A stretch of 64,000 nucleotides of DNA from Candidatus Kerfeldbacteria bacterium (GTDB lineage: Bacteria > Patescibacteriota > Patescibacteriia > SBBC01 > CAIJZX01): NCBI GenBank assembly GCA_016193315.1, contig JACPSJ010000004.1:1708-65707 (forward strand), in the 5' to 3' direction. Shown here piece by piece: positions 1 to 62,907 of the stretch. The notes beneath the pieces were generated by a model. It was not told the DNA's origin and made no database searches. It saw only the letters and a program-made list of their open reading frames with translations. How positions within the stretch are numbered: the first letter of the stretch is position 1; every line of letters starts with the position of its first letter. Made by a program: the position numbers and the translations under genes.

Positions 1-3000
1 GATGGATTGCTGGAAAAGTCGTTATTGACTTGAATCGCCCCGCCGGCGGTGTAAGTATACCCGCCGCTGATGGTCGGGCTGAAAGTAAGATTGTAGTAGC
101 CATTCGTGCCGCCGGTACCGGTCAGCGACGTAATCGTCGTGTTGAACCCGCCGGTGCCGATGTATTCAACTGTGCCAGTCGAATAGGTGAAGGTTCCGCT
201 GACGGTGAAGACTGTACTATTCCCGGTCAGCGTCAGCGTGTTGGCACCATTTGCATCCAGTTCATGCGAGAGCGCGACCGTGACGGCGGTCGCTGAGACG
301 GACGAACCGAGCCGGATTTCCGGACTGGCAGAACCGCCACTGATTGAAATCCTGCCGAGGTCTTGTTTCGTCGTCGGGTTATTATCGGTCCACGTTTTGA
401 ATCCACTCGTGCTCCAAGTAATCGTATTGCTCCCATTTGTATAGGTCATCTGGTTCGAACAGGTCGCCGCGCAAACCGTGACGTTGCCTTTGAGCGTCAT
501 GGTGGGATTGTTCGTGCTGGCCGTGATGACAGTTGAAGCCGCGTTGCTATTCCCGCCAAGGTTCAAATCGCCATCAACCGCGATGGTCTGGCTGGCGGCG
601 GTGCCGAGGGTGTGCGTCACGGACGCCCCGCCCGGGTAGACATTCAAATTGTAATATGTGATGTCACCGGCAATGTTGGTGGCGCCGTTGCCGGTGTAGG
701 TAATGGTTCCATTCTGGTGGGTGTAGGTGCCGGTTTCCACCAATGGGGTGCCGGTCCCGCTGAGCGTATACGTTTCGCCGCCGGCGTTGAGGACGTGGCT
801 GGCGGTAATCGTCATGACGCCAGTGACGGTGATGTTACCAGCGCCGTTGCTGCCGGTGGTCGTTTCCGCCGTGCCGTTGCCGAAGGTCAGGCCGGAAAAA
901 GTCCAATTCGAGGACGAACCGCCCCAGTTACCGGTGCCGCGAAGTGTAAACGTCCCGCCGGTCAGGTTAATCATGCCGTTGCCCGTCGCGTCTCCACCCA
1001 GGACATCGATATTGGCGGTCCCTGACAGCGTGCCAGCAGTCATAGTCAAATCGACGTCAATGGTCGTGGCGTCCGCAAACGACCAGCCGCCACCGGTACC
1101 GTTATACGTGACGTTGTCAAAATTCTCGCCGCCATCGGTGACGGTATGACCGGTGGCGGTGGCCGTAAACGTCGTGGTTTGTGGATTCGTCTTGTTGAAC
1201 GTTCCCTCGTTGTTGAAATCGCCGCCGACGGAAAGGGCATTCGTAGCCATCGTTAGCACGCCAGTACCGTCGATGTGAATATCGCCGTCCTTGACCGTAT
1301 CGGTGCCGTCGTTGGAAACGTCGGTCGTCACCGTCCCGCCAGGAGTAAACGTGTCACCGGTCCAAACATGAAGCTCAATGCCGTCATCAACGACCAAGGT
1401 GTCGGGCGCGGCATCTTCGGCGTCGTAAAGCATGTTCGGAGCGTCCTGGTCGTTGTCGTAATCGTCCATATTGACGATCGCCAGCGGCCCGGCATTTTCA
1501 TGTCTGGCGGTCAGCGTATTGACGTAGAGGTCAATGCCGGCGTCATTGGTGGCGTCGCTGGTGTAGACTACGTTGCCTTTCTGCGAAGTCGTCAGATAGA
1601 GATAGACGGAGCTGCCCGATTCAACGTAGGTGTTAATCGAGAAAGTGGCGTCCGCGCCGGAACACGATCCGGTGTCGGTCGTCAACAGCGTCCCGGCGTC
1701 GTAGACTTTGATCGTCAGCTCGCTGGCGCCGTTGCACGGTCCCCCGTTGCCGACGGTCCCGGCGGTGGATTCATCGGATTTGAAGACCGTGCCGGCGACC
1801 GAGATCGGACAGCCAGTCTTAACCCAATTCGCCCCGACGTTGCTGAAGGTGCTGCTGTAGGTGGTGATCGTCGGCGTCGAGGTCATGTCGGTGACGTTTA
1901 GGTCATTGAGCGTGTACGTCCCCGCCCCCAACCAGTTTCGTTGCGTGCCGCCGACGGTCGAGGTAATGGCGATCTCGTCAGCTTCGCTGCAGGCCGTGGT
2001 GGTGCCCTGCAGCACGGCGGTCCCGGCATTATCGAACGTGCCGCCGAGGATGATGTCGCCGGTCGAAGTGTTGCTCCATTTGCCGGGCGAGGCGCCGCCT
2101 TCGATCACCACCGCGGCTGAACCTTGGGCGCGCACGTTAAGGGTTCCCTGGATCAGCTCGCCATCGGCGATGGTCAGCGTGTTGGTCACCCGGATGCCGT
2201 TCGTATCGAGGGTCAGGTTATCGTTCGCGTCGGACGCGTCGCTTTTATCAATCTTGAGGTTGTAGAAATTCTGGGTCGTACAGGTGGAAACATTGGTACA
2301 CCCCGAATCGAGTGTGACTGATGTGGCCCCATCAAACGTCACCGTTCCGGTTCCTTCGTTCAGTGTCCCGAGATTGGTCCAAGCCCCAGAAACGGCAAAG
2401 GATTGTGTTGATGAAGCAGTCAATGTATTGTTTGTTTCGATGGTTACATCGACGGCATCGATCGGATGGTCATTTGACGTGTCGTTATCAAGAACGACGA
2501 GTGCGGTCGTACCGTCACCGATTGACAGGATGCTGTCAACCTTGATGGTTGAACCGGTACCGGCATTCATTGAAATTGTCTTGGTGGTGGCCGCGACTGA
2601 ATTCGAAAAATTGAGATCGCTAAAAGTCCAGGTATTCGTGCCGGAACTGGCGCCGAAATTTTGATTGGCGGAGACTCGTTGTTGGAATGACCCGCCAGTC
2701 ATGGTAATAGTTCCGGCGCCGGTCACGTTTCCCTTGGCCGTGACATTATTTGATCCGTTGAGCGTGCCCGTAACGGTCAGGGTATTGTTGACCGTCAGCG
2801 CTGAAGCCACGGTCGTCGTCCCGCTTGATTGCGTCAGGGCATAGACCGTGGTCAGTGCGCCCCCGCCAAGGTTTCCTGTCCCTGACATGGTCAGCGTACC
2901 AGTTCCGGCATCAGTCGTGATTGAACCCGTGCCCGTCGACGTAAACGCACCGCCGTTGACCGTCGCCGTTGCGTTGACTTTGTACGTCGCACCGGTCGAG

Positions 3001-6000
3001 ACCGCGATGTCGCCGGTAACGGTGATGGTCTGGCCCTGGGTGAAGGTTCCGCCGGTAACCGCCACGTCGCCTTGGATCGAAGCGGTGTCGCCGAGTGACA
3101 CCGTGCCGCCGGAAACGGTAAAGCTAGAGAGACTGTTCCCTCCCGAGGTCAGCGTTTTTGAGGTGCCATTCATCACCAGCGTGGCGGCCGCGACGTAATA
3201 GACGCGCAGTTCGGGATCGTTGGCCGAATCGACTGAGGCAAAGCTGCCCGGGTCGTTGGCGGCGCCGTTGTGCCGCACGCCAAAGGCGATGATGTCGTCG
3301 CCGTCGGGCAGGGACGCCTCAACGTTGGCGTCGGCGGTTGTGCCAAGATCGTACAATTTCCAGCCGGTGGTCGTGTGATCGGTGACCGTCAGCAGGGTTG
3401 AGTTTTCCGCCAGCTTTTCGTACAGACTGCTGCCGGCCGAGGTGCAGGAGATGGTGTCAGGCGAATCGCTATTGACCGTGAACAAATCAAGGCTGTTCGC
3501 AGTCGTCGCAATCACGTTTAATCTCAGCTCGGTGTTCACCACTTTGGCCGTATTGGGGACGGTCGTCAGACTGAATTTCATCGCGTCCCGATAGTATTTG
3601 TCGTCGCTCGGGCCGCAACTTCCGAGTTCTACTGAAGTCAGTAAAGTGGCATCCGTCCCCGCCTCACAACTATACGTGGTGCCAATGATCTCGCACAGGC
3701 CGTCCAGGTCGACGGTTCGAACGGCGGTGATATCCCAGCTCGGCGTGAGGGTTTTGACCCCCTCGGCGTAGATACCGCTGGTCAGATCGACATTGCCGCT
3801 GACCGTCCAGCTATTCGTGCCGGCCAGGATAATTTCGTCACCTGCCGCGCCGCCAGTGAAATCCAGGTCGCCGGTGATGCTGACCGTTGGGTCGTTGGTA
3901 TCAGCATCAACGGTCAAGTCGCCGGTGTTGGCCGCGTTGAGCGTGAAATTGGAAGAGAAGCTGGGTGATCCGGCGTTGCCGGCGACCGTTCGGTCCGAAG
4001 TTGAGTTGCTGTAGACCTCGACCGTGCCGCCGTAGGGCGCGCCGGAGGTCCGGGTCCCGATGGTCTGGTCGTTGTTGGTGGCGTCGAAGCGCATGTTGGC
4101 GGTCAACACGCCGCTGGTCGGGAAGGCGGTTGCCGACTGGTAGACAAATAGACCCGAACCGGAATGCGCGATGGTGCCGTTCAGCGTTAGCGTCGCGCCG
4201 CTATGCGTTAGTGTGACGGATGCGAGGGTAATCACATCACTAGTATCAACATTCAGGGTTCCGGTCACGGTCGGATTGTTGGTTTGGATCGTGAAGCCCC
4301 CGGACCCATCCGAACCGGCAAAGGTGACGTTGGAAAAACTCGAGCTACCGGATTCAACCGTGTTGCCGCTGTCGGGCGCGTCAAACGTCAATGTTCCGGC
4401 GCCGGCCGTAAACAGATCATTGTTGTCCCAGTTCCCGCCGACGGTGATGTTGTTGCCGTTGGCGTCAAACGTGCCGTCCGTAATCGTGACATTATCATTC
4501 GCATCGAAGGCCGTGGTCAGCTGGAAAGTTACTTCCTGGGCGCCATCGTTGAAGATCACGCCATAAAAATCCGGGGCGGCCAGCCCGCGGGCGTCGATGG
4601 TCTTGGTGCCGGCGGCCGTGGCGTCGAAGGTGACGGTGCTGGTGCTGATCGTGAACGTATCGTCATTGTCCCAGTTCCCGCCGACGTTCAGATTATTGCC
4701 GTTGGCGTCGAGGGTGCCGCCGGTGATGGTGACGTTATTGTTGGCGTCAAAGGCGGTGGTCAGTTGGAAGGTGGCGGTTCCGCCGGCATCATTGAAGGTC
4801 ACGGCGTAGAAGTCCGGGGCGGCCAACCCGCGGGCATCAATCGTTTTGGTGCCGGAGGCGGCGTCGAAGGTGACGGTCGAGGTGCCGATGGTAAACGTCC
4901 CGTCGTTATCCCAGTTGCCGGCCAGATCGATGTTGTAGTTCGACCCGGTCACGTCGAGGGTCGCGCCGCTGGCGATCGTCAGGTTTCCTTCCAGGCCGTT
5001 GGTGCCGGTCATGTTGGCCGTCAGGTTATACGTTTCGCTACCAGCTAATTCCAGGCTGGCATAGGTCGTACCGCCGCTGTCCGAGGCCACGCTGATTGCG
5101 CCTCCGCTGTTCGTAGCGGAGTACTTAACTGTTGAACTCGTATTCGGCGTCAACGTGCCGGTGATCGTCAGGACGGTCGCCGTCGCGCCGGCGTTGGCCA
5201 GGGTGAGGGTGTAGCCGCTGTTGGCGAGATCAAGCGTGTCGCCGGTTTGGATATCCGCCGTATCCACGGTCATCGACGAAGCCAAGGTGACTTTGTCGTT
5301 GGCGCCGACGCCGCTGGTTTTATTGAAGACGACGGCGCCGATATTTTGCGGCGTCGAGGTTGAATCCGTGTACGTCGCGGCCGTCGTGCCGTCGAACGTC
5401 CAGGTGCCGGTGCCTTTGGTTACAAACGCGCTGGCGCCGATGGTCACGTCGCCGGCGGTGTTGACGGTCGGGTTGCCGGAATTGAGGATCAAATCGCCGT
5501 TGGTGATGTTGAAATTCCCGTCAACATTCAGGGCACCGGCACCGGCGATAGTGACATTGTCATCTGAGCCATCGGTGCCAGTGTTGTTCAGGGTGACATG
5601 GTAAAAGGCTGAGGTTCCGGTATTGAACGTTTGCGGGTCGCTGCCGTTGAAGGTCAGGGTGCTCGTGCTTGAGGTAAATGTCCCATCGTCGACAAAGTTA
5701 CCCGCCACGTAAATAAAGTTGTTATCCGTGGTAAAGGTCGAGGTATCAAATTTCAGATGGTGGGTGGTGACATCGGCGCCACCGCCAGAGCCAGGCCGGT
5801 ACGTATCTCCGTACATGATGTACAGCTGCTCGGTCTTGTTCGCCTCTTGGTCGACGGTCAGGTCGTTCGTGGCCACGCCGTAAATAACATCCTCATCGTT
5901 GGTATTGGTGTAGTCGTCGAGATCGGTATTGGCGATAGTTTGATCGCTGTTGTCGCTGTCGACACCAGTCCCAATGACCAGTTGCGATTGGTACAGTTGG

Positions 6001-25059: not shown

Positions 25060-25596
25060 ATGAAAACTGTCAATTCCAATCCAGCTATCCCGGACGTAGT
25101 CCGTAAGTTCGACGCCGCGCTCCCCCATTTTCCTGATGGGCGGATTGATTATCGCGGGTCAGGCCGGGCGGCGGTTATTAATGTCGTTGTCAGTGATGGG
25201 CATAAAATTCTTCTACTCAAGAGAAGTAGCCGGGTCGGTGCTTACCGCGGTTTGTGGGCCACGATCGATGGGTACTATGATCGTCTCGTGCCCGTGGAGA
25301 CGATGGCCTTGACAGAACTGACCGAAGAAGTTGGTGCCTCCCCGACCGATGTCGTTCAGGTTCAGACAAAGACGGCTTTTGAGATTTTCGATCCAGCCAT
25401 TCATCGGACTTGGATCGTTCACCCCGTCTACCTTGAAATCAAACACCGACCAAGAATACAGCTGGACTGGGAACACACGGAGTACCGTTGGGTTCAACCC
25501 CAAGACCTGGGTCAATATGATACCATTAAAGGACTCGACCAACTGATAACTCACGTATGGCCATCAAAACCGTCACCATCAAGCAGGGCGCAATGA
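25060..25596 (+). CDS. NUDIX hydrolase
   Basis: Nudix box GLWATIDGYYDRLVPVETMALTELTEEVGA. Listed ORF starts at 24925; first ATG at 25060. Confidence 0.65.
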   Translation: MKTVNSNPAIPDVVRKFDAALPHFPDGRIDYRGSGRAAVINVVVSDGHKILLLKRSSRVGAYRGLWATIDGYYDRLVPVETMALTELTEEVGASPTDVVQVQTKTAFEIFDPAIHRTWIVHPVYLEIKHRPRIQLDWEHTEYRWVQPQDLGQYDTIKGLDQLITHVWPSKPSPSSRAQ

Positions 25597-25652
25597 TGCC
25601 CGGCACGCCGCAGCAAATCAACGAAGCTCCCGGCAGCTGGAACACGCTCTGA
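25557..25652 (+). pseudogene. 31-codon remnant duplicating the 5' end of the SRPBCC gene (MAIKTVTIKQGAMMPGTP...)
   Basis: Contains a 50-bp copy identical to the start of the gene at 26254. It diverges immediately afterwards and stops at 25650-25652. Confidence 0.5.
25563..25612 (+). repeat. 50-bp perfect direct repeat, left copy (atcaaaaccgtcaccatcaagcagggcgcaatgatgcccggcacgccgca)
   Basis: Identical to 26263-26312, exactly 700 bp away. The pair flanks the hicBA-like cassette. Confidence 0.85.
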
Positions 25653-25712
25653 AAGTCCCAGTCGCCGGCACCGATTGACAAGTCAGTTTGTTTCTCGTAC
25701 GATAGTGACATT

Positions 25713-25991
25713 ATGGAATCACGCCGGGTGGAACTATCTGTAACTTTTTTGCGCGCCGGGAAACGTTACGTGGCATTCAGCCCGGCTTTGGATTTGTCGA
25801 CCTCCGGCAAAACGTTCGCCGAAGCGCGCCGACACTTCGAGGAGGCGGCCGACTTGTTCCTCACTGAGCTCGACGAGATGGGGACACTCGATCAAACCTT
25901 GACCGCGCTCGGGTGGCGGAAACTAGAGCGGCGTTGGACCCCGCCCGTCCTGGTCGCTCAGGAAAACAGCCAAGTCCGGATTCCGGCTTAA
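25713..25991 (+). CDS. HicB-like (UPF0150/RNase-H-like fold) antitoxin
   Basis: ...KRYVAFSPALDLSTSGKTFAEARRHFEEAADLFLTELDE... fits the HicB_lk pattern YxAxxPxLxxxxxGxTxEEAxxxxxEAxxLxLE. Confidence 0.6.
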   Translation: MESRRVELSVTFLRAGKRYVAFSPALDLSTSGKTFAEARRHFEEAADLFLTELDEMGTLDQTLTALGWRKLERRWTPPVLVAQENSQVRIPA

Positions 25992-25997
25992 CTGGCG

Positions 25998-26228
25998 ATG
26001 GCGAAACTGGCACCGATTCACTGGCGCCGGTTCGACAAATTTTTGATTTTTGTCGGCTGCCGACTGATGCGGGAACGCGGCGACCATCGGGTCTACCAAC
26101 GGCCTGGCCTGATTCGCCCGATTGTGGTGCCGCGTGATACCCAGCTCCCGGTATTTATTATCCGGAATAATTTGCGTTTGCTTGGTGTGGCGATTGAACA
26201 GTACCTAAAAATACTCGATCAGGTCTAA
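25998..26228 (+). CDS. HicA-like mRNA interferase toxin
   Basis: ...ERGDHRVYQRPGLIRPIVVPRDTQLPVFIIRNNLRLLGV... fits the HicA motif (G-[SD]-H...VP.H...L..G). Seven nt downstream of the HicB-like gene. Confidence 0.65.
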   Translation: MAKLAPIHWRRFDKFLIFVGCRLMRERGDHRVYQRPGLIRPIVVPRDTQLPVFIIRNNLRLLGVAIEQYLKILDQV

Positions 26229-26253
26229 TCAACTATACAAATCACAATACAAC

Positions 26254-26661
26254 GTGACTGGAATCAAAACCGTCACCATCAAGCAGGGCGCAATGATGCC
26301 CGGCACGCCGCACGAAGTTTTTGAGTTGTGGATGGACAGCACCAAGCATGCTGCTTTCACCGGCGGCGAGGCGAAGATCAGCCGTCAGGTCGGCGGCTCG
26401 TTCACCGTCTTCGACGGCTGGGCGACCGGCAAGAATGTGAAACTGGTGCCAGACACAACCATTGTTCAAACCTGGCGGGCCGACGATTGGCCAGCCGGCC
26501 ATTTTTCAACTATCACTGTCAGCCTGATCAAAGCCCCGAATGGCACGAAGTTTCTGTTCACTCAGACGGATGTGCCAGCCAGCAAAGCCAAGGACATCGC
26601 CCAGGGATGGCGTGATTACTATTGGGCGCCATTGAAAGCCGCCTTAGCCAAACCGAGTTAG
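26254..26661 (+). CDS. SRPBCC/AHSA1-domain protein (activator-of-Hsp90-ATPase homolog-like)
   Basis: MTGIKTVTIKQGAMMPGTPHEVFELWMDSTKHAAFTGGEAKI...; GTG start. Confidence 0.7.
   Translation: MTGIKTVTIKQGAMMPGTPHEVFELWMDSTKHAAFTGGEAKISRQVGGSFTVFDGWATGKNVKLVPDTTIVQTWRADDWPAGHFSTITVSLIKAPNGTKFLFTQTDVPASKAKDIAQGWRDYYWAPLKAALAKPS
26263..26312 (+). repeat. 50-bp perfect direct repeat, right copy (start of the intact SRPBCC gene)
   Basis: See left copy. Confidence 0.85.
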
Positions 26662-29161: not shown

Positions 29162-29185
29162 GGGGCCTATCTGCCCGCCAGGCCG

Positions 29186-29257
29186 TACCAGGAGTGGGGA
29201 TCGAACCCACGACCTCGGGCTTATGAGTCCCACGCTCTACCACTGAGCTATCCTGGC
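29186..29257 (-). tRNA. tRNA-Met(CAT), elongator-type or Ile2-type; cannot be distinguished by eye
   Basis: Sense: GCCAGGA TA GCTC AGTGGTA GAGC G TGGGA CTCATAA GCCCG AGGTC GTGGG TTCGATC CCCAC TCCTGGT A; G1-U72 wobble. Confidence 0.8.
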
Positions 29258-29326
29258 CTGGCCTGGCGGGCGAATGAGTCCCCCCCCGCTGTTTGGCGGG
29301 ACTCTACCGGGCTGAGCTACTCTGGC
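29258..29326 (-). pseudogene. degenerate partial tandem copy of tRNA-Met (acceptor + D-arm GCCAGAG-TA-GCTC-AGCCCGGTA-GAGT, then a disrupted anticodon/T region) immediately 5' of the intact gene
   Basis: The reverse complement of 29258-29326 reads as a decayed copy of the tRNA-Met 5' two-thirds (D-arm, then ...ACTCATTC GCCCGCC...). Confidence 0.4.
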
Positions 29327-29409
29327 TCGTCTTGGCGGGCGGGGGCTGACCTAACCTAGCGCCTTTTGGCGGGAGAAACTGTAACCCGAATGAAAAGATA
29401 GCGCAAGTA

Positions 29410-30597
29410 TTATTTGCCGCGGGAATATTCCTGACTGACCGTGACGCCGTATTGTTCCAAGTCAAGGAGCACGGCTTTCCGGGCGGATGAATCGAGTGCT
29501 TCAGGCGGGTAGACCCCCTGTCGCATCAAGCCCGGCCGCCCATGCAACAGCGCAAAAGCGGCGGCGGCCACGCCGGTAGGGTAAGAAATGTAGGTCGCAC
29601 CGGGGAAAAGGCGCGAAATTTTCTTGAGGTCTGGATACCGGGCGACGGCGTTAATCCGTATGTGGCGACGACCGACCCGGCCCTCGGTTTCGACCACCGA
29701 CAGGAAAGTACCTTGTTCAACAATGCCCGAGCGAATCAGGCGGATCATGGTTTTGGGATCCGGCACGCGCGGGGCCAGCTTGGCGAACAACTCCACGGGC
29801 ACGACTGACCGGCCATGAACCGTGACCGGGCGACGATTGAATAGCCCCAGACGGTAGAGCGCTTTGGAAAAATCGACATCGGTGCCGCTGGCCTTATAAT
29901 CGACGTCGCGGCTGCTGATGTAGCGCGGAATCGTCGCCACCTCATCACCATAGATGCTAACCGCCAGTCGTCGGCCGAAGGGGGCCGGAAAATTGCACTG
30001 TTGTGCATCCGCAAAAGGTTTGGTCGATGTATATCGACCGTGACGGTAGACCAGTGGCGGCGAAGTCAACTCGCGGAGGGCCACGACCGGCGACCAGGTA
30101 AAGATGAGTTCACTGGCGATCTGCTCTTCCATGACGCGGATACCAATGTGGTCAACGCGGTCAAGTTTCTCGGCCGTCTGACGGGCCAGGAGATTAGTGA
30201 TGCCCGGAGACACGCCGGCGTTGATCAGCCCCATCAGTCCCGCCCGACGAAACTGACGGTCGAGGCGCAGTTGCTCGGGATGAACGTCATCCTGCAGGGC
30301 GGCGTCGAGATCTTGGTAATGACTGCCAATTTTCAAGGCGGCCCTCATAACGGCCAGGTTGAAATCTGGCAAGCTAGCGTTGATGATGAGTCGAGCGCCT
30401 CGGCCCGCGGCGACAATTGATCGTGGGTTGTTCGCCTCAACCCTAACCAGGCGAATTTTCTTATGGCCGGCAATAAACAATCGAGCTCGCCGCAGATCCC
30501 GGGCGCCACAACGAACTTCTTCGACTGCCGGCCGGCGGGCAAGAAGTTTCGTTAGGACAGAAGCAACTGCGCCAGCACCTACGACCAGTATTTTCAT
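29410..30597 (-). CDS. saccharopine-dehydrogenase-like NAD(P)-binding oxidoreductase
   Basis: MKILVVGAGAVASVL Rossmann N-terminus; Sacchrp_dh-type architecture. Confidence 0.7.
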   Translation of the reverse strand: MKILVVGAGAVASVLTKLLARRPAVEEVRCGARDLRRARLFIAGHKKIRLVRVEANNPRSIVAAGRGARLIINASLPDFNLAVMRAALKIGSHYQDLDAALQDDVHPEQLRLDRQFRRAGLMGLINAGVSPGITNLLARQTAEKLDRVDHIGIRVMEEQIASELIFTWSPVVALRELTSPPLVYRHGRYTSTKPFADAQQCNFPAPFGRRLAVSIYGDEVATIPRYISSRDVDYKASGTDVDFSKALYRLGLFNRRPVTVHGRSVVPVELFAKLAPRVPDPKTMIRLIRSGIVEQGTFLSVVETEGRVGRRHIRINAVARYPDLKKISRLFPGATYISYPTGVAAAAFALLHGRPGLMRQGVYPPEALDSSARKAVLLDLEQYGVTVSQEYSRGK

Positions 30598-30722
30598 GTG
30601 CTTAGTATACCAAACATTTCGGTCTCGATCACTGTTCAGCCGAACTGCCAGGGAGCCACGTAAGATGGAATTAACATAACCAGAATTCTGCCCACGACCC
30701 GTGTCTTGGGTACAACCCTGGT

Positions 30723-30748
30723 TGCAGGAGGGGGAGTCGACCCTGGCC
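30723..30748 (-). pseudogene. degenerate duplicate of the 3' end (T-arm + acceptor) of the adjacent tRNA-Met(CAT) gene; has acquired ...TCCTGCA-ACCA
   Basis: tgcaggagggggagtcga-ccctggcc versus the intact tgcgggagggggagtcgaaccccctgcc. Confidence 0.45.
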
Positions 30749-30763
30749 AGCGGCGACCCGCCA

Positions 30764-30803
30764 CCGGCGGCTCGCCGGACGTTCTCCCGCCATGCGGCGG
30801 GAC
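30764..30803 (-). repeat. GC-rich hairpin repeat, copy E5 (part 1 only)
   Basis: ccggcggctcgccggacgttctcccgccatgcggcgggacc. Confidence 0.5.
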
Positions 30804-30884
30804 CACTTCTGGCCTTCTCCTCCCCTCGAACTTATGTCCAAGCAAAGTCCTCTCCATGAACACCCTTCCTGGAGAAAACCTTAC

Positions 30885-30956
30885 TTGCGGGAGGGGGAGT
30901 CGAACCCCCTGCCTGCGGATTATGAGCCCGCCGTGCATCCGTTACACTTCCCCGCG
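30885..30956 (-). tRNA. tRNA-Met(CAT) with initiator-like features (C1xA72 mismatch; GGG/CC in the anticodon stem)
   Basis: Sense: CGCGGGG AA GTGT AACGGAT GCAC G GCGGG CTCATAA TCCGC AGGCA GGGGG TTCGACT CCCCC TCCCGCA A. Confidence 0.7.
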
Positions 30957-31059
30957 ATGTGAATGCTCGTTCTGAGCCACCGTAGTGTAGGCGCTAACCT
31001 CGGCCCTGTCAAGAACCAAGAACATTGGTGCAATCGAGAAACATTGGTACACTACCAGC

Positions 31060-45155: not shown

Positions 45156-46220
45156 CTATGGCCGCGAGACAACCAACATCACCGGCTGGCCCCTGACCGC
45201 ATCGCGACGGCTCAGCGCTACGCCACGTCCATTAGACACTAGGTCGTGCATGGCCGCCATAATCCGCGTTTCGTCGTAGAGGTAGTTTTCGCCAAAGCGG
45301 GTGCCCGGGTCATTGACGATGAAGCGGCCGTTTTCCGCGTACCCTTTGATAACCACCATGTGATAGATCGGCCCGCCATTACGGAAGTTAGGGTTATTCA
45401 GCAGGCTGCCGGCCAGCGGTACGATAACTGGCTGGCCTTGGTCGAGAAAATCGTGGATTTGCGCAATCGATGGATTCCTGACCAGTTCGACCCGGAGGCC
45501 GTAATTGGCCCGCAGCATGGCGGCGGTCTCGGCCGCCGAGGTATCCTTGTGGTAGCCAAACGTGGCCAGTTCCCACGCTTTCAAACGCTGCAGCGCTTGC
45601 TCGGCATCCGACGGGCCGGCGATCTCCCGTCGCTGGAAGTACCGACCGACCATCAGCACTGAAGCCTCCTCACAAAAATTGTCGTGATCAAAGTCCCAGA
45701 GGCCATGTGGCGCCTGGGCGGTAAACGGCACCGCCAGCCGGTGCGTTGACGCCAGCTCCGCGAGGGCCCGATTACTGATCCCCAGGCCAAGGGCGGTCAT
45801 GATCTGAAAAGCGTCGGCTGGGCGACCGAGAAAGTGACGTTGCAGCGTACCGGGATAGACGTACCACGCTTCACCATTCCGCTCTACCTGGATGAGAACA
45901 CGCCCTGACATGCGGCGTCGCAGGTTAGGATCGCCGGCCTGGCTGCTGCCAGCCACAGGAATCTTCGCCAGGTTAGCATTGCTAATGCCTAAACCATGTT
46001 GCCGCATGATGAAGAACGCGTCGGCCGGGCGACCGAGGTACACGCGGAGCAGCGTATCCGGATGGACGTACCAGGCCTCGCCGTTCCGTTCGACCTGCAG
46101 CACGATCATGCCGCGGACGCGGCTAGCCACGTCCGCTTGGAGATGTCCGGGCCACAGCCACCATGCCGCCAAAAGCAAAAATGGGGCCGCGCCCCACCTG
46201 ATCGACCGCTGACTGCTCAT
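45156..46220 (-). CDS. secreted C39-like (papain-fold) cysteine peptidase with two N-terminal copies of a ~46-aa repeat
   Basis: Signal/TM at the N-terminus. Repeats GR(V/I)LIQVERNGEAWYV.P.TL.R.FLGRPADAF.IM..LGLGISN..LA x2. Catalytic region ...NFCEEASVLMVGRYF...YHMVVIKGY...NDPG. Confidence 0.7.
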   Translation of the reverse strand: MSSQRSIRWGAAPFLLLAAWWLWPGHLQADVASRVRGMIVLQVERNGEAWYVHPDTLLRVYLGRPADAFFIMRQHGLGISNANLAKIPVAGSSQAGDPNLRRRMSGRVLIQVERNGEAWYVYPGTLQRHFLGRPADAFQIMTALGLGISNRALAELASTHRLAVPFTAQAPHGLWDFDHDNFCEEASVLMVGRYFQRREIAGPSDAEQALQRLKAWELATFGYHKDTSAAETAAMLRANYGLRVELVRNPSIAQIHDFLDQGQPVIVPLAGSLLNNPNFRNGGPIYHMVVIKGYAENGRFIVNDPGTRFGENYLYDETRIMAAMHDLVSNGRGVALSRRDAVRGQPVMLVVSRP

Positions 46221-46278
46221 CTTCCCCTAAGCATACCACAATCAACGCTAAAAATCAAGCTCGCCGGGACCGTTATAG

Positions 46279-47106
46279 TTATTGTTCCGCGACGATCAAG
46301 ACTACTTTTTGACCGTCCCGAACATCGCCGTTGCGGGGGACGGTCCGATCGCCGCTCGGTACCCAATCATGGATCGCGTTCATGACTACCTCTTGATCAT
46401 AGACGTATTCCTCGCCATTGCGAGTGCCCGGGTCGTTGGTAATAAACTGGCCATCGTCGGTGTAACCACGGATAACTAGCATGTGGTAAATCGGCCCCGG
46501 CGATCGGAAGTTGGGGTTACCAAGTTCGCGGCCAGCGGCCGGGACGATGACCGGCTGGCCGCTGGCCACTGCCCGTTTGATGTCATCGACCGTCGGATTG
46601 GTTATGGCTTCCACCCTGAGTTCGTAAAAATCCACCAGCATCTGAGCTGTTTCGGCGGCGGTCGTGTCATAGTAAAAGCCCAGCTGGTCCAATTCCCAGG
46701 CCTTCAGCTGCTGCAGCGCCGCTTCGGCATCGTCTCGATCGCGGATTGGCCGCCGCTGGAAATACCGTCCGACCATCAGCACGGCCGCTTCTTCGCAGAA
46801 CTCGTTGTGGTCAGTGTCCCAGTTGGCGTGGGGGGCTTGCGAGGTGAACGGAATGGCCAGATTCTTCTCCGCGGGGAAATCTGGAACATGCGCCGATTCA
46901 TTCAGGTTCAGTATCTGGCGGCGGTTGGCGGCGGCATTCAGAGCCGGCGCGGCAATCGATTCAGCAATCTGCTCAGCTGGAGGCAGGCGGCTCTTTTGCC
47001 GGTCCAGTAGCCAGTCTTGAACGCGGCTGGTATGCCAAACTCTCCAGCTCCCATAGCCGAGGCCAGCCACGACAACCAGCCAAACAAACAGTTTCTGAAT
47101 GGTCAC
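46279..47106 (-). CDS. C39-like cysteine peptidase paralog without the N-terminal repeats
   Basis: ...EFCEEAAVLMVGRYF...YHMLVIRGY...NDPG...; N-terminal TM. Confidence 0.7.
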   Translation of the reverse strand: MTIQKLFVWLVVVAGLGYGSWRVWHTSRVQDWLLDRQKSRLPPAEQIAESIAAPALNAAANRRQILNLNESAHVPDFPAEKNLAIPFTSQAPHANWDTDHNEFCEEAAVLMVGRYFQRRPIRDRDDAEAALQQLKAWELDQLGFYYDTTAAETAQMLVDFYELRVEAITNPTVDDIKRAVASGQPVIVPAAGRELGNPNFRSPGPIYHMLVIRGYTDDGQFITNDPGTRNGEEYVYDQEVVMNAIHDWVPSGDRTVPRNGDVRDGQKVVLIVAEQ

Positions 47107-47115
47107 CGGAACGAC

Positions 47116-48627
47116 CTACACCTTGAATCTTGAATCCGCCACCCGCCTGGCCAACTCGACCAGCCAGCGCACCCCGGTACCGGTGGCACCCTTGGTGAGA
47201 TAATCACCTTCGATCGAGGTCATGGTGGGAGCAATATCGAGGTGGACCCACGGCGTGTGCGGATCGACAAACTGCTGGAGGAACTTGGCCCCATTGATCG
47301 CTCCGCCGTAGCGGGTCTTACTGGCATTGGCCACGTCGCCGAAGGTACCTTTGACCTCACTATCGTACTCTTCCCACATGGGCAGTGGCCAGACGTAGTC
47401 ACCGCTGGTCTCGCCGATCGCCCGCCCCTCGGCTTCGAAATCTCCGCGGTTGGTAAACATAACGATCGCTCGCTGGCCAAGCGCGACCACGGCGGCGCCG
47501 GTCAATGTCGCGACATCAACGATCATCCGGGGCTTGAAGAACTTTTGGGCGTAGGTAATGGCGTCGGCTAAGATAACTCGCCCTTCAGCGTCGGTATTGG
47601 CGATTTCGATTACTTTTCCGGACAGCGAGTGCAGCAAGTCCCCGGGACGATAACCTGATCCGGAAGGCATATTCTCAACGGCCGGCACGAGCGCCACCGC
47701 GTTGAGCGGCAGCTTGAGCTTGGCCATGGCGGTCATGGCGCCGATAGCCGCCGCTCCGCCGGACATGTCCAGATGCATGTCCGACATCGCCGGCTCGGGT
47801 TTTAAGTTCAACCCGCCAGAATCGAACGTCACGCCTTTGCCGATGATGGCCAGGGGCGGCTGGATCTTGCGACCACCGTGGTACTCGAGGATAATAAACT
47901 TCGGTTCTTCGCTGCTGCCGCGGGCCACACCCAGAATCGCACCCATGCCAAGCCTTTTCATCTGTGGCTGACTTAAGATCTTGACCGTCAGTCGGGCCTC
48001 TTTCGCCACCCGCCGAGCTTCGGCCGCCAGCATCGTTGGCGTCATCTTGCCACCGGGGGTATTGGCCAGATCGCGGCTGGCGTTGATCGATTGGCCGATC
48101 ATGAAGCCACGCCGAATCGCTGCCTCCCAGCCAGGTTTCGTTTCCCGTGCTAGGAACGTCAATCGATCGACGCTTGGCCAGCCGCCAGGCGGGGCGGTTC
48201 GCCAGCGGTGGAATTCATAATCGGCCATGGCGTAGCTGATTGTTCGTTGCTCGATGGTGGTCTCGTCCACCTCGACGCCGCGCCGGTGGATGATCGGCAT
48301 AATCATCGACCGCCAGCGGTGTTGCCGGGCGAGGCTGACCATGTGACGGGCTAGCAATCGGCCGCGGCGACCGGTCCATTCCGGCCACTTGCCCAAGCCA
48401 AGGAGTAGCGCTCCTTTTACTCGGCCGGTCGGGCTACGGAGAACATAGCTGTTACCCCAGTCCATCCGCAGATCCGGCTGGCCGAGCCGGGTCCGGATCA
48501 GATGTCGGATCGGAGTGGGGAAAGTCGACCACCAGGGGTGATCGTTCGGTTTCATGTCGGCGAAGTAGCCAAGAACCAGGACGTCAGCCGACGGCAAAAC
48601 TCCTGTTCTCTTGATCGACACCTTCAT
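47116..48627 (-). CDS. pepA: leucyl aminopeptidase (M17)
   Basis: NTDAEGRVILADAITYA and other M17 metal-site motifs. Confidence 0.85.
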   Translation of the reverse strand: MKVSIKRTGVLPSADVLVLGYFADMKPNDHPWWSTFPTPIRHLIRTRLGQPDLRMDWGNSYVLRSPTGRVKGALLLGLGKWPEWTGRRGRLLARHMVSLARQHRWRSMIMPIIHRRGVEVDETTIEQRTISYAMADYEFHRWRTAPPGGWPSVDRLTFLARETKPGWEAAIRRGFMIGQSINASRDLANTPGGKMTPTMLAAEARRVAKEARLTVKILSQPQMKRLGMGAILGVARGSSEEPKFIILEYHGGRKIQPPLAIIGKGVTFDSGGLNLKPEPAMSDMHLDMSGGAAAIGAMTAMAKLKLPLNAVALVPAVENMPSGSGYRPGDLLHSLSGKVIEIANTDAEGRVILADAITYAQKFFKPRMIVDVATLTGAAVVALGQRAIVMFTNRGDFEAEGRAIGETSGDYVWPLPMWEEYDSEVKGTFGDVANASKTRYGGAINGAKFLQQFVDPHTPWVHLDIAPTMTSIEGDYLTKGATGTGVRWLVELARRVADSRFKV

Positions 48628-48647
48628 GGCTCTAGTATACGGCCAAT

Positions 48648-49418
48648 TCAGCCACCGGGGAAGACCTGCCCGACCCCAATGATGGTCAGGATGCCGAGGA
48701 CGAGCAGACCAAGCTGGACGACCGTCTTGGCTAGGCTCTTCTCGCGGTGAATCTCTGGTACCAAGTCAGCCGCGGCAATATAAATGAACGCTCCAGCCGC
48801 CAAGGCCACCAGCGGCAACACCAGGCCATCGATCAGTCCGGCGGCGAGGAGAGTGACCATCGTCCCAACTGGGCTGACGAGAGCCCCGAAGAGATTCCAG
48901 CCAGCCACGGCCCGGCGACGCATGCCGCCGTGAATGAGGATGCCGAAATCGCCGATTTCCTGTGGCAGCTCGTGAGCCAAGACAGCGGTCGCGGTCGAAA
49001 CTCCGAGCGCTGGACTGACGAGGAAAGCGGCGGCAATAATCGTGCCATCCAGAAAGTTGTGGACCGCGTCACCGACAATGATCAGCGGCCCGAGGGCCTG
49101 GTGTTCGTGAACGTCGTCATGACGCTCGTGGCCGTGGCCATGGTGGTGCCAAAGCAGAAACTTCTCGATCAAGAAGAATAACAAAAAACCAACCAGCAGC
49201 CAGGTGAAGACGGCGCCCAATCGACCGGCACTTTCACTCACCGCCTCAGCCAGCAAATCAAAAAAAGCCGCCCCGAGCATGGCCCCGGCGGCAAAACTGA
49301 CCAGGTAGGAAGACAGCCGCTGCACGCCGCGGTATTGGGCCAGGAGCAGAAAGCCGCCGGCCAGGCCGAGCAGGCTCGACAAGGTGCTGGCGATCAGGGC
49401 TTGGATAGCTGGGCTCAT
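48648..49418 (-). CDS. ZIP-family divalent metal transporter (ZupT-like)
   Basis: ...AVLAHELPQEIGDFGILIHGG... signature; 8 TM helices. Confidence 0.8.
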   Translation of the reverse strand: MSPAIQALIASTLSSLLGLAGGFLLLAQYRGVQRLSSYLVSFAAGAMLGAAFFDLLAEAVSESAGRLGAVFTWLLVGFLLFFLIEKFLLWHHHGHGHERHDDVHEHQALGPLIIVGDAVHNFLDGTIIAAAFLVSPALGVSTATAVLAHELPQEIGDFGILIHGGMRRRAVAGWNLFGALVSPVGTMVTLLAAGLIDGLVLPLVALAAGAFIYIAAADLVPEIHREKSLAKTVVQLGLLVLGILTIIGVGQVFPGG

Positions 49419-49421
49419 GGT

Positions 49422-49961
49422 TTAGGTCACGAATCGTTTCTCCCCGGCTTCAATCCGGACGGTCAAAACATTGTCACGCGGTGGGATGGGACACGAGTAG
49501 TGTTGATTATAGGCACAGTAGGGATTGTAGGCCAAGTTAAAATCGACTTCGAGTAAGCCATCAGCGCCGGTGGCCGGCTCCAAGTAGCGCCCGGCCGGAT
49601 AGGTCTCGTCCTCGCCGGTGGCATCGCGGAAAGGCAAAAAATATCCGTGTTCATCTTTGAAGACTGACGGTTTAGCCGGTTGGTCTTGAACCGCAAAAAG
49701 AATTTTGCCGGCCCGAACGTATCGCCGTTGGCCGCTCCTCGAGTCTGAGCCTCGGAGTCGAAGACCGGTGCTTAACATCATGATCGGATCAGGCGGAACA
49801 TTTTCGTCGAGCGGCAATCGAAGCCGGAGAGCCGGGTCTTCCGGATAGTGATGCAAACCGGAAAATGAAGTTTGCTGCTCCGGAGTTAACGGCGAATCCG
49901 GGCCCCGAAAAAAATCGTCTTTCTCGTTCCGGAATGTTTGCAGGTCAGCGCCCACGCTCAA
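49422..49961 (-). CDS. DUF1684-family protein
   Basis: ...YNPYCAYNQHYSCPIPPRDNVLTVRIEAGEK... Confidence 0.55.
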   Translation of the reverse strand: MSVGADLQTFRNEKDDFFRGPDSPLTPEQQTSFSGLHHYPEDPALRLRLPLDENVPPDPIMMLSTGLRLRGSDSRSGQRRYVRAGKILFAVQDQPAKPSVFKDEHGYFLPFRDATGEDETYPAGRYLEPATGADGLLEVDFNLAYNPYCAYNQHYSCPIPPRDNVLTVRIEAGEKRFVT

Positions 49962-51337
49962 GCGGGAACAATTACAATCGAGTTCGGCAACCCTCGGCCG
50001 GGACCCAGGATATAACGACCATTCAAGTAGAGAGCGGTCGAACCACCGCCGTCGAGATTGAGAGCGTAGTCGAGACCGAGGCCGTCCATGGCCGCCGCCG
50101 AATCGGTGACTGTTGCCCCACGGACGATGAGCAAGAAGATGGTGTCTCCTTTCCAGCCGATGGCGCCGCGGTATGATTTGACCGTCGCCTGTTTACTATC
50201 AAGCTGGTACTGCCCGACCACATTCTGACCAGCAATGACCAGCGGTGGGCCGTTACTCAGCGCCGCCCGCAGGATCCCGCTGCCGCCCTTGGCTAACGAG
50301 TCGGCCCGGAACCCATCAAGAAACTTCTGGTAGCTGCCGAAAGTCTTTGACTGGCGGTAAAAAAATGGCCGATTGCTGGTGTCAAAGGCAAGCAGCGGCT
50401 CGACCGTATACTTGATCCGGCCGGCGTTGATCATGGTGCGGGTAAAAGAGTTGTAGACCGGCGCAAAATAGTGACCGGTTTGCCCGACGCAACTGGCATA
50501 TTCGGCCGGGCAGAAGTAGGTGCCGTGGATGCCAGCGATGCCGGCCCGCCGGCCGACATAGGTCGACAACGAGTAGACCGGACAGTTGTTCGCGCAATCC
50601 CCGTTGGTGGCAGTATCAGTCATCAGTTTGACCGCCGGGTTCTTGCGGTCGAACGTCAAGTAGTCAACCAGAAACGTGCCGCGGCTGGTGGCGACGTTCT
50701 TCTGGCCGAGGGCGACGCCGCTATCGACCGGAATCTGGCTTAGGTTGGCGTTAGTGATGCCCAATCCCAACCGCCGCATTAAGGTAAAAGCGTCCGCCGG
50801 GCGTCCGAGGAAGTAGCGCTGCTGGGTCTTGGGATAGACGTACCACGCTTCGCCGTTCCGTTCGACTTGGATTAGGATCCGGCCGGCCAGACGTCGACGA
50901 AGCGCCAGGTCGCCTTCTGACGCGCTGCCGGCCACCGGGATTTTGGCCAGGTTGGCGTCGGAAATTCCCAGTCCCAGTCGACGCATGATATCAAAAGCAT
51001 CCGCGGGACGACTGAGGAAAAACCGGGTCAGCGTCACCGGATGGACGTACCACGCCTCGCCGTTCCGTTCGACCTGGATCAGAATGTAACCTGATACGCG
51101 TTCGGCCACCGTCGCCAAGGACCCGGTGTTTGGCCAGAGCAGAGCCAACCAGATGATAGCCGCGATGGTAACAGAAATCTTACGCATCGATATTGCCATT
51201 ATACCATAGGCCGCCGAGACGGCTGCACGTGCGACCGCTCTCAAAAAATACTGATAATGACCAGGATGCCGAAGGCATTGGCCAAAAACGACAGGCCGAG
51301 AAAACGCGCGGGCGTGACATCCGAGAAGCCAAACCAT
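49958..51337 (-). CDS. secreted phosphodiester-glycosidase (NAGPA-like) domain protein with the same N-terminal ~46-aa tandem repeat (x2)
   Basis: Repeats as in 45156..46220. C-terminus ...DYALNLDGGGSTALY..., typical of the phosphodiester glycosidase family. Confidence 0.7.
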   Translation of the reverse strand: MVWLLGCHARAFSRPVVFGQCLRHPGHYQYFLRAVARAAVSAAYGIMAISMRKISVTIAAIIWLALLWPNTGSLATVAERVSGYILIQVERNGEAWYVHPVTLTRFFLSRPADAFDIMRRLGLGISDANLAKIPVAGSASEGDLALRRRLAGRILIQVERNGEAWYVYPKTQQRYFLGRPADAFTLMRRLGLGITNANLSQIPVDSGVALGQKNVATSRGTFLVDYLTFDRKNPAVKLMTDTATNGDCANNCPVYSLSTYVGRRAGIAGIHGTYFCPAEYASCVGQTGHYFAPVYNSFTRTMINAGRIKYTVEPLLAFDTSNRPFFYRQSKTFGSYQKFLDGFRADSLAKGGSGILRAALSNGPPLVIAGQNVVGQYQLDSKQATVKSYRGAIGWKGDTIFLLIVRGATVTDSAAAMDGLGLDYALNLDGGGSTALYLNGRYILGPGRGLPNSIVIVPA

Positions 51338-62650: not shown

Positions 62651-62652
62651 AG

Positions 62653-62722
62653 CTCCGAGGGCGAGATTCGAACTCGCAACCAATCGGTTAACAGCCGATT
62701 GCTCTCCCTGGGCGCCGCGGCT
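62653..62722 (-). pseudogene. tRNA-Asn(GTT) fragment: intact anticodon arm + T-arm + 3' acceptor, degenerate 5' acceptor/D-arm
   Basis: Sense 3' portion ATCGG CTGTTAA CCGAT TGGTT GCGAG TTCGAAT CTCGC CCTCGGA G; the 5' part (CCGCGGCGCCCAGGGAGAGC) cannot form a D-stem. Confidence 0.5.
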
Positions 62723-62835
62723 CCTGCGGAGCATCGCGTCACCCGTTCGCGCGGCCGCACGTGAAGCAGTTCACGTGCTAGCTTGCAGCTGCCGCGCGAA
62801 CCCATTTCGCTACCCAGAAGCCTAAGCCCACCCAG

Positions 62836-62907
62836 CTCCGGGGGCGAGATTCGAACTCGCAGCCAATGGATTAACAGTCCACTGCTCTACCGTTGAGCTA
62901 CCCCGGA
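62836..62907 (-). tRNA. tRNA-Asn(GTT)
   Basis: Sense: TCCGGGG TA GCTC AACGGTA GAGC A GTGGA CTGTTAA TCCAT TGGCT GCGAG TTCGAAT CTCGC CCCCGGA G. Flanks extend acceptor complementarity to about 15 bp (cacccagctccgggg / ccccggagctgggtg). Confidence 0.85.

Follow-up and report, generated by a model that had tools for sequence, protein, structure and literature searches.

A 64-kb stretch of DNA from an uncultured groundwater bacterium, a Candidatus Kerfeldbacteria (Patescibacteria) metagenome-assembled genome (MAG), carries a small hicBA toxin-antitoxin (TA) cassette between two perfect copies of a 50-bp sequence, where a NUDIX hydrolase gene ends and an SRPBCC-family gene begins. We read this arrangement, with moderate confidence, as a recent insertion of the cassette at the overlap of the two genes, made in one step and accompanied by duplication of a 50-bp target. 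As such it is best filed as a further example of a rare but known class of insertion, with a known kind of cassette as its load; the likeness to published cases is in the insertion mode, not in the cargo. The whole 64-kb stretch is referred to below as the window; coordinates without a locus name refer to it, and the copy numbers of the repeat and of the insert were assessed within it.

The 50-mer (ATCAAAACCGTCACCATCAAGCAGGGCGCAATGATGCCCGGCACGCCGCA), located by an exact repeat search, is found at 25563–25612 (left copy) and 26263–26312 (right copy), both on the plus strand. The copies are identical at 50 of 50 positions, and their starts are 700 bp apart. This pair is the only long perfect direct repeat of the window: there are no further copies with up to three mismatches, no match was seen in 100 dinucleotide shuffles, and the number of such pairs expected by chance is about 1e-21. 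Identity between the copies ends abruptly, and the sequence outside them is unrelated on both sides. Of the 20 bases just beyond each end, six are identical upstream and five downstream, which is chance level, and gapped local alignments of 40–60 bp of the flanks are not significant (p = 0.15–0.49). Short resemblances past the 50-mer (ACGT..TGG upstream; CGAAG..TGGA downstream, and QQINE vs. HEVFE in translation) were considered as a possible extension of the repeat and rejected, the similarity not being significant. The initial annotation had described two identical copies exactly 700 bp apart, a 31-codon dead-end remnant at the left copy, and nothing but a HicB-like and a HicA-like gene between the copies; the repeat search, the open reading frames (ORFs), and the PF07927 match described below all agree with this. 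It did not mention that the NUDIX stop codon lies within the left copy, or that the insert carries a promoter-like site of its own.

A separate pattern, spotted post hoc, is a CCGGCA motif present three times within 70 bp (at 25600, 25630, and 25665) across the junction of left repeat and insert (25599–25670), the window's only such cluster. The heptamer CCCGGCA occurs nine times in the window, three of these at 25599, 25629, and 26299.

The left copy lies at the end of the NUDIX hydrolase gene (25060–25596, plus strand; Pfam PF00293, E = 1.3e-10), whose ORF runs into the repeat and terminates inside it (stop codon 25594–25596). The final 40 nt of this gene overlap the orphaned 5′ end of an SRPBCC gene, a 31-codon ORF (25557–25652, plus strand) with its ATG at 25557, within the NUDIX 3′ end. 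It consists of ATG GCC (MA), the 50-mer (IKTVTIKQGAMMPGTP), 13 unrelated codons, and TGA. The first 18 residues match the N-terminus of the SRPBCC family, and tblastn gives 81% identity over residues 4–24. The intact SRPBCC/AHSA1-family gene (26254–26661, plus strand; 135 aa; PF08327, E = 2.2e-22) is at the right copy, and its product is identical to NCBI MBI2984881.1. It starts with an in-frame GTG ACT GGA derived from the insert, followed directly by the right repeat. The GTG, 9 nt inside the insert end, is taken as the start by both NCBI and the ORF finder; the start behind a 34-bp spacer reads GTGACTGGA. The next gene 3′ encodes myo-inositol-1-phosphate synthase. In the family alignment, SRPBCC homologues start MKTxTIKQG..., or in a few cases MAVKT... 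or MTIKT..., and T6, Q11, M14, P16, and G17 are nearly invariant. Because these N-termini match, the repeat can be said to encode a conserved SRPBCC segment. The N-terminus encoded by each copy is thus genuine for the family, and the sequence by itself makes both starts plausible.

Comparison with other loci helps to choose between the two starts. Among the 149 loci fetched for the comparative set, a single one, from a distant member of the Patescibacteria (L012; JBIOWE010000004.1), has adjacent homologues of NUDIX and SRPBCC and lacks a hicBA cassette at their junction. The L012 NUDIX gene (4980–5471) and SRPBCC gene (5468–5866) overlap by the sequence ATGA, and each product is 43% identical to its counterpart in the window. 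The L012 NUDIX protein ends one residue past the position aligned to window residue 166, which is the site of the left-copy ATG. The alignment of the two NUDIX proteins stops at residue 166–167, leaving the last 11 codons of the window gene as a non-conserved tail. At this point the window has GTATGG for the TTATGA of L012 (window 25555–25596 vs. L012 5460–5471); the NUDIX gene has therefore lost its overlapping stop and acquired 11 extra codons, which run into the SRPBCC 5′ region in another frame. The left copy looks native because its ATG is at the same NUDIX-end/SRPBCC-start overlap site as in L012. The initial annotation took the right copy to be the true start of the SRPBCC gene. The gene is indeed intact there, but ancestrally it more likely began at the ATG of the left copy. 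This copy appears to hold the native start, now displaced, whose translation was coupled to that of NUDIX, and the right copy appears to be the same segment rejoined to a start codon that came with the insert. The SRPBCC gene as such is resident here, because its neighborhood is common to another Kerfeldbacteria MAG (L001), with which the order TPR-ParB-ParA...SRPBCC...M56 peptidase is syntenic.

The nearest relatives of the NUDIX gene in GTDB species representatives are from DPANN and Thermoplasmata archaea (at most 47% identity), with only a few from Patescibacteria, a distribution that suggests inter-domain transfer among small-celled groundwater organisms.

The insert, as bounded by the repeat copies, is 650 bp long (25613–26262, plus strand). 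It consists of a 62-bp left flank, a promoter, a hicB-like gene, hicA, and a 34-bp right flank supplying the GTG. The predicted promoter is sigma-70-like (TTGACA-17-TACGAT; 25675–25703, plus strand), with 10 of 12 consensus matches. Its −10 box ends 9 nt before the hicB ATG, which implies that the hicBA message would be nearly leaderless. The TTGACA and a TAnnnT box are conserved in four of five aligned cassettes, the window's own counted. The same placing of the hicB ATG 9 nt past the −10 box (window 25703–25715) is seen in three of the four related cassettes that were aligned (L004, L005, and L007), implying that leaderless or nearly leaderless mRNA may be usual in this cassette family.

The two genes are separated by six bases: hicB-like (25713–25991, plus strand; 92 aa), assigned as an antitoxin by structural likeness and by its pairing with hicA, and hicA (25998–26228, plus strand; 76 aa; PF07927, E = 5.4e-6). 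This antitoxin-first order matches that of pneumococcal hicBA. The PF07927 score of the toxin is 26.9 bits, 0.1 below the 27-bit gathering cutoff; PF07927 is precomputed on nearly all of 120 listed homologues, and the NCBI name is HicA family toxin. Residues G28, D29, and H30, which make up the G-x-H motif, are invariant in 26 homologues; the histidine of this motif is catalytic in the HicA proteins studied. On sequence grounds the 76-aa ORF is a HicA toxin, predicted to act by mRNA cleavage and to be neutralized by its partner.

For the 92-aa protein, neither it nor any of 24 homologues has a Pfam or NCBIfam match. A profile of these homologues matches the HicB-fold protein 2yzt in the PDB (E = 0.0016) and, weakly, HicB3 (4p78, E = 0.52). 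An AlphaFold2 (AF2) model (predicted local distance difference test, pLDDT, 79.5) has the topology E-E-E-H-H, three strands and a long helix, for which the top Foldseek matches are again 2yzt (prob 1.00, E = 0.06, root-mean-square deviation 1.1, 45 columns) and an antitoxin, 3k6q (prob 0.97). Profile and model point the same way, but both are statistically weak. The likeness to the HicB fold (three strands and a helix, partly RNase H-like) is confined to the N-terminal ~55 residues. No C-terminal DNA-binding domain of the ribbon-helix-helix (RHH) or helix-turn-helix (HTH) type, such as would serve autoregulation, was found, residues 66–92 being of low confidence in the model, with no secondary structure or domain match. 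A homologous gene for 91–99 aa is found 3–9 bp upstream of hicA in L004–L009 and L150–L154. The name “HicB-like” is reasonable, based as it is on weak statistics together with this conserved pairing.

The hicBA pair is, by comparison of these loci, a discrete unit that has evidently moved between contexts. The related set comprises 11 loci with 12 cassettes. Homologues of HicA and of the 92-aa protein are paired side by side in every locus examined, and the neighbors of the cassettes are unrelated to each other: ADH, gyrB/secE, an ABC transporter, a RibD_C fragment, a cupin-like gene, and other TA genes. When five cassettes are aligned as DNA, their homology begins at the −35 box and ends with the hicA stop. 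This conserved core is ~555 bp (25675–26228), and in the window's insert it is extended by 62 bp to the left and 34 bp to the right. A search for relatives of the pair, suggested in the initial annotation, found the nearest at 80% identity for HicA and 73% for the HicB-like protein. Within the window, blastn and tblastn detected the insert and its flanks only once, and searches of phage, plasmid, and viral-contig collections gave no match to this HicA family.

The initial annotation saw an insertion footprint here, and the NUDIX-SRPBCC adjacency in L012, the occurrence of the cassette in unrelated contexts, and the sharply bounded perfect repeat all support it indirectly. A one-step model that creates both junctions together fits best. 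The starting point would have been a stalled fork or a staggered chromosome break, the nicks lying on opposite strands at a distance of about 50 nt. A linear piece of DNA carrying hicBA, without recombination machinery of its own and probably obtained by DNA uptake or from elsewhere in the genome, would have been joined between both ends, and filling-in of the two 50-nt overhangs would have given two identical copies. Alternatively, a replicative template switch could have copied the cassette and returned 50 nt behind its point of departure. The left copy would retain the NUDIX stop and strand the old ATG as a 31-codon dead end, and the right copy would keep SRPBCC intact through the in-frame GTG 9 nt inside the insert. 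The ancestral junction predicted by this model is ...CTCACGTATGGCC + 50-mer + CGAAGTTTTTGAG..., and the junction predicted for a circle or tandem form is ...CAACGTGACTGGA + 50-mer + GCAAATCAACGAAGC....

Searches for mobility features at the site were negative. The insert ends lack terminal inverted repeats, and neither a hairpin nor an attC-like structure was detected: the 34-bp flank, the 62-bp flank, and the repeat fold with z = −1.1, +0.84, and +0.55 vs. shuffles. No Rfam element lies at the insert borders, a tRNA-Leu gene 1.3 kb upstream being the sole Rfam match. No integrase or transposase domain is present in the larger flanking ORFs checked over about 17.5–35.3 kb of the window, among which those with domain matches include TopA, TPR, ParB, and ParA. 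An integron gene cassette was rejected, there being no attC imperfect palindrome and the flanks folding like shuffles. Some transposons do create long direct repeats, IS1634 and IS1549 among them. Transposons of this type share with the insert target duplications of tens of base pairs or more (as in the Mycoplasma transposon cited in PMC2853133), but the insert differs from them: it lacks a transposase and terminal inverted repeats, and it occurs only once in the window. The same three absences, and a duplication of 50 bp vs. 2–14 bp, led to the rejection of a DNA transposon, insertion sequence (IS), or miniature inverted-repeat transposable element (MITE) in general. The objection raised in the initial annotation, that typical transposases do not make duplications as long as 50 bp, is a fair one, but it does not call for a new class of event (PMC2853133).

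Insertion with long target duplication was described by Kobayashi's group from Helicobacter pylori genome comparison, and then in many bacteria (PMC2853133; a further reference named for the class is Nobusato et al., 2000, Gene 259:99). The units concerned are restriction-modification (RM) systems of less than 20 kb without mobility genes, with target duplications of more than 30 bp (Furuta, Abe, and Kobayashi, 2010; PMC2853133). Two Haemophilus influenzae cases have 46-bp repeats, with 44/46 identity, overlapping the 3′ end of a gene, and the majority of all cases come from naturally competent species (PMC2853133). The authors suspected that the restriction enzyme itself makes double-strand breaks; the mechanism is unsettled in the literature (PMC2853133; reviewed in PMC3874152).

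The window insert resembles these RM insertions in being a small, self-contained “addiction” unit with no transposase, integrase, or inverted repeats, and in having direct repeats of more than 30 bp that duplicate the target and overlap the end of a host gene. Against the features by which Furuta et al. (2010) defined their cases, the insert is 650 bp long (<20 kb in the published definition), with no mobility genes in it or among the larger flanking ORFs checked; the flanking repeat is 50 bp (>30 bp); and the repeat, required to be otherwise unique in the genome, has just its two copies in the 64-kb window. The definition also calls for both R and M genes, where the cargo here is hicB-like plus hicA. 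A type II TA pair with an RNase toxin is a different cargo, to which a restriction-cut trigger cannot apply. The host also differs, being a MAG of the Candidate Phyla Radiation (CPR)/Patescibacteria, and the published cases were defined by genomes with an empty site. In a literature search, papers naming both this insertion mode and TA systems apply the mode to RM only.

With known type II hicAB/hicBA cassettes (Makarova et al., 2006; Streptococcus pneumoniae HicBA; Yersinia pestis HicB3, PDB 4p78) the insert shares a small G-x-H HicA with an antitoxin of putative HicB fold, a promoter of its own, a patchy distribution, and varied contexts; it differs in that its antitoxin has no Pfam/NCBIfam HicB match and no recognizable RHH or HTH domain.

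Several points weigh against a one-step insertion. No same-species empty site with a single copy of the 50-mer was found in the databases searched, where the nearest relatives are only 74% (SRPBCC), 80% (HicA), and 73% (HicB-like) identical. The 134-aa SRPBCC allele predicted for an empty site is absent among 15 billion proteins, as is the 31-aa remnant; the contig index has no record of the exact SRPBCC and HicA proteins. Genome contigs scanned with NUDIX gave relatives of at most 47%, mostly archaeal, and metagenome contigs scanned with SRPBCC gave relatives of at most 68%, in neither case with an empty site. L012 is only a distant analogue of one. At the 11 related hicBA loci no flanking repeat like the 50-mer was found, the longest being 7–10 bp (apart from an element in L153 and L154, described below); the footprint is not a recurrent signature of the cassette family, because these loci lack a comparable repeat. 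Break induction by a restriction enzyme cannot carry over from the published cases, because HicA is an RNase and not a DNA nuclease. The in-frame start codon in the last 9 nt of the insert has to be put down to luck or to selection. Finally, the source is a MAG, and the structure is known from assembly only.

Of the other explanations, the likeliest is a homology-driven capture, though we consider it unlikely. Here the incoming DNA would already have had the 50-bp SRPBCC 5′ sequence next to the cassette, and this shared stretch would have served for recombination with the chromosome. Possible donors are a 700-bp circle released by a sibling chromosome and a transforming fragment of a strain in which hicBA natively precedes SRPBCC, and the route would be a Campbell-type single crossover or homology-facilitated illegitimate recombination, which would leave the homologous segment on both sides. 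Laboratory insertion-duplication mutagenesis, a Campbell-type integration of a circle with a short homologous segment, yields the topology seen here, homologous segment–insert–homologous segment; it differs in that the circle must contain the 50-bp segment of the host beforehand, and a donor of this kind is not known. At 50 bp the repeat exceeds the minimum length that RecA-dependent recombination generally requires, its two copies show 100% identity, and the right junction, GTG ACT GGA followed by the conserved N-terminus, resembles a workable native start. Long-duplication insertions are moreover concentrated in naturally competent species (PMC2853133). Capture moves the problem back, however, to an earlier event that must have made the first junction of cassette and 50-mer. 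In none of the 84 SRPBCC tblastn matches among the fetched loci is hicBA upstream of SRPBCC, and identity ends exactly at codon 3, with no divergence gradient.

An improbable alternative is a decayed integrase element, whether prophage or integrative element, in the SRPBCC 5′ end, which would have integrated through a 50-bp identity block, bringing a replacement start for the gene, and from which deletions have left only its stabilization module hicBA between attL and attR, as in a cis-mobilizable element (CIME). Direct repeats at a gene end and a replacement terminus supplied by the element are typical of integrases, TA modules are common cargo, and there is a tRNA-Leu gene 1.3 kb upstream; the repeat classes are among those discussed in PMC2853133. 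The tRNA gene is outside the repeat, however, and the larger flanking ORFs checked (about 17.5–35.3 kb) contain no integrase or recombinase domain. The insert is just 650 bp long, its borders are 62 and 34 bp from the conserved core, and the HicA family is unmatched in the phage, plasmid, and viral-contig collections. Perfect 50-bp identity in a coding target, synonymous sites included, would also be unusual for an att core.

An assembly artefact, in which strain variants or a small circle were mis-joined through the shared 50 bp, seems very improbable. The source is a MAG, a 700-bp loop closed by an exact repeat of roughly k-mer size has the topology of a de Bruijn cycle, and these proteins are found in no independent assembly. 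The three proteins are identical to MBI2984879-81, from a Candidatus Kerfeldbacteria MAG (130,167-bp contig), and the HicA, 92-aa, and SRPBCC proteins are all singletons at 90% clustering. For such a path to form, however, both junctions must occur in real reads, and 50 bp is less than normal read length, so that reads span the repeat. The frames are coherent over the junctions, the left copy containing the NUDIX stop and the right one being preceded by an in-frame GTG, and GC content is continuous over the region.

An older duplication of the SRPBCC 5′ end, with hicBA landing between the copies later by chance, is extremely improbable: “chance insertions between repeated sequences” are a class listed by Furuta et al. 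(PMC2853133), but two rare events at one site would be needed, the copies are 100% identical though the last 16 bp of the left one are under no evident constraint, and nothing but the cassette and 96 bp of flanks separates them.

If hicBA did insert in one step with duplication of its target, the duplication would be what preserved the two genes despite an insertion at the very place where they overlap. SRPBCC would have been uncoupled from NUDIX, to lie 26 nt downstream of hicA and behind the predicted cassette promoter, which would now also be directed toward SRPBCC and the gene for inositol-phosphate synthase. Recombination between the 50-bp repeats should permit precise deletion, restoring the ancestral junction and releasing a 700-bp circle, although loss of the cassette would be counter-selected by the more stable HicA toxin once the antitoxin was lost.

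The movement of small chromosomal TA modules without visible mobile machinery is poorly understood, and this footprint is unusually clean, with base-exact borders, a perfect duplication, and both interrupted overlapping genes preserved. It would extend a little-studied insertion mode, known for RM systems, to TA genes, here with a toxin that is unable to cleave DNA, in a host lineage that is ultra-small, episymbiotic, and thought to rely heavily on DNA uptake. TA cassettes of CPR/Patescibacteria could conceivably spread in general as naked promoter-to-stop units, through transposase-free insertion with long target duplication; we regard this wider proposal as doubtful. If true, the insertion route would depend on break repair or DNA uptake by the host rather than on a nuclease of the cargo, and the 50-bp repeats would give a reversible cycle of excision and re-capture, policed by the cassette's toxin. 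As a single case without an empty-site control, the window is of value less as a discovery than as a lead for systematic searches for long target duplications around TA and defence cassettes.

The related loci yielded some further observations. In L153 (JGI Ga0172369_10000100, 2400–5200), and likewise in L154, there is a TA array made up of a HigB-like gene, two tandem hicBA cassettes, and ParE, separated by a ~50-bp GC-rich palindrome with a T-run (near 2595–2648, 3355–3385, 3966–4031, and 4522–4552 in L153). A 57-bp, 96% identical repeat, 27 bp of it exact, lies directly upstream of both hicB genes. This is the exception to the short flanking repeats noted above: it recurs as a terminator-plus-promoter element between the tandem cassettes, and was rejected as a flanking footprint, consisting instead of a terminator-like palindrome and a promoter. 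It may be a terminator-plus-promoter module, or a boundary element of the cassette array. In L004, 2.2 kb downstream of an intact hicBA, an orphan HicA C-terminal fragment (5074–5139; residues 48–69, 68% identity) is apparently the decayed remains of a second copy. Contigs L150 (at 2550) and L151 (at 306), which come from sibling samples, share 99% identity beginning 150 bp upstream of hicB but have unrelated sequence ahead of this point, a difference that is presumably either a strain-level breakpoint or a contig chimera beside the cassette; the pair was rejected as a second insertion site, the right flank being shared and so uninformative. The RibD_C fragment upstream of hicBA in L007–L009 was likewise rejected as a split gene, being the C-terminal end of the domain and not cassette-split.

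The window contains several other repeats. Two tRNA-Asn(GTT) genes, 183 bp apart, are 82% identical (62652–62907), and two tRNA-Met(CAT) genes are 1.7 kb apart (29185–30957). Diverged 158-nt repeats are present in four copies at 45738–51081, as two pairs 4.8 kb apart, and diverged repeats of 68/169 nt, with a period of about 243, are found at 4361–5703. These diverged sets are probably repeated domains in large surface-protein genes.

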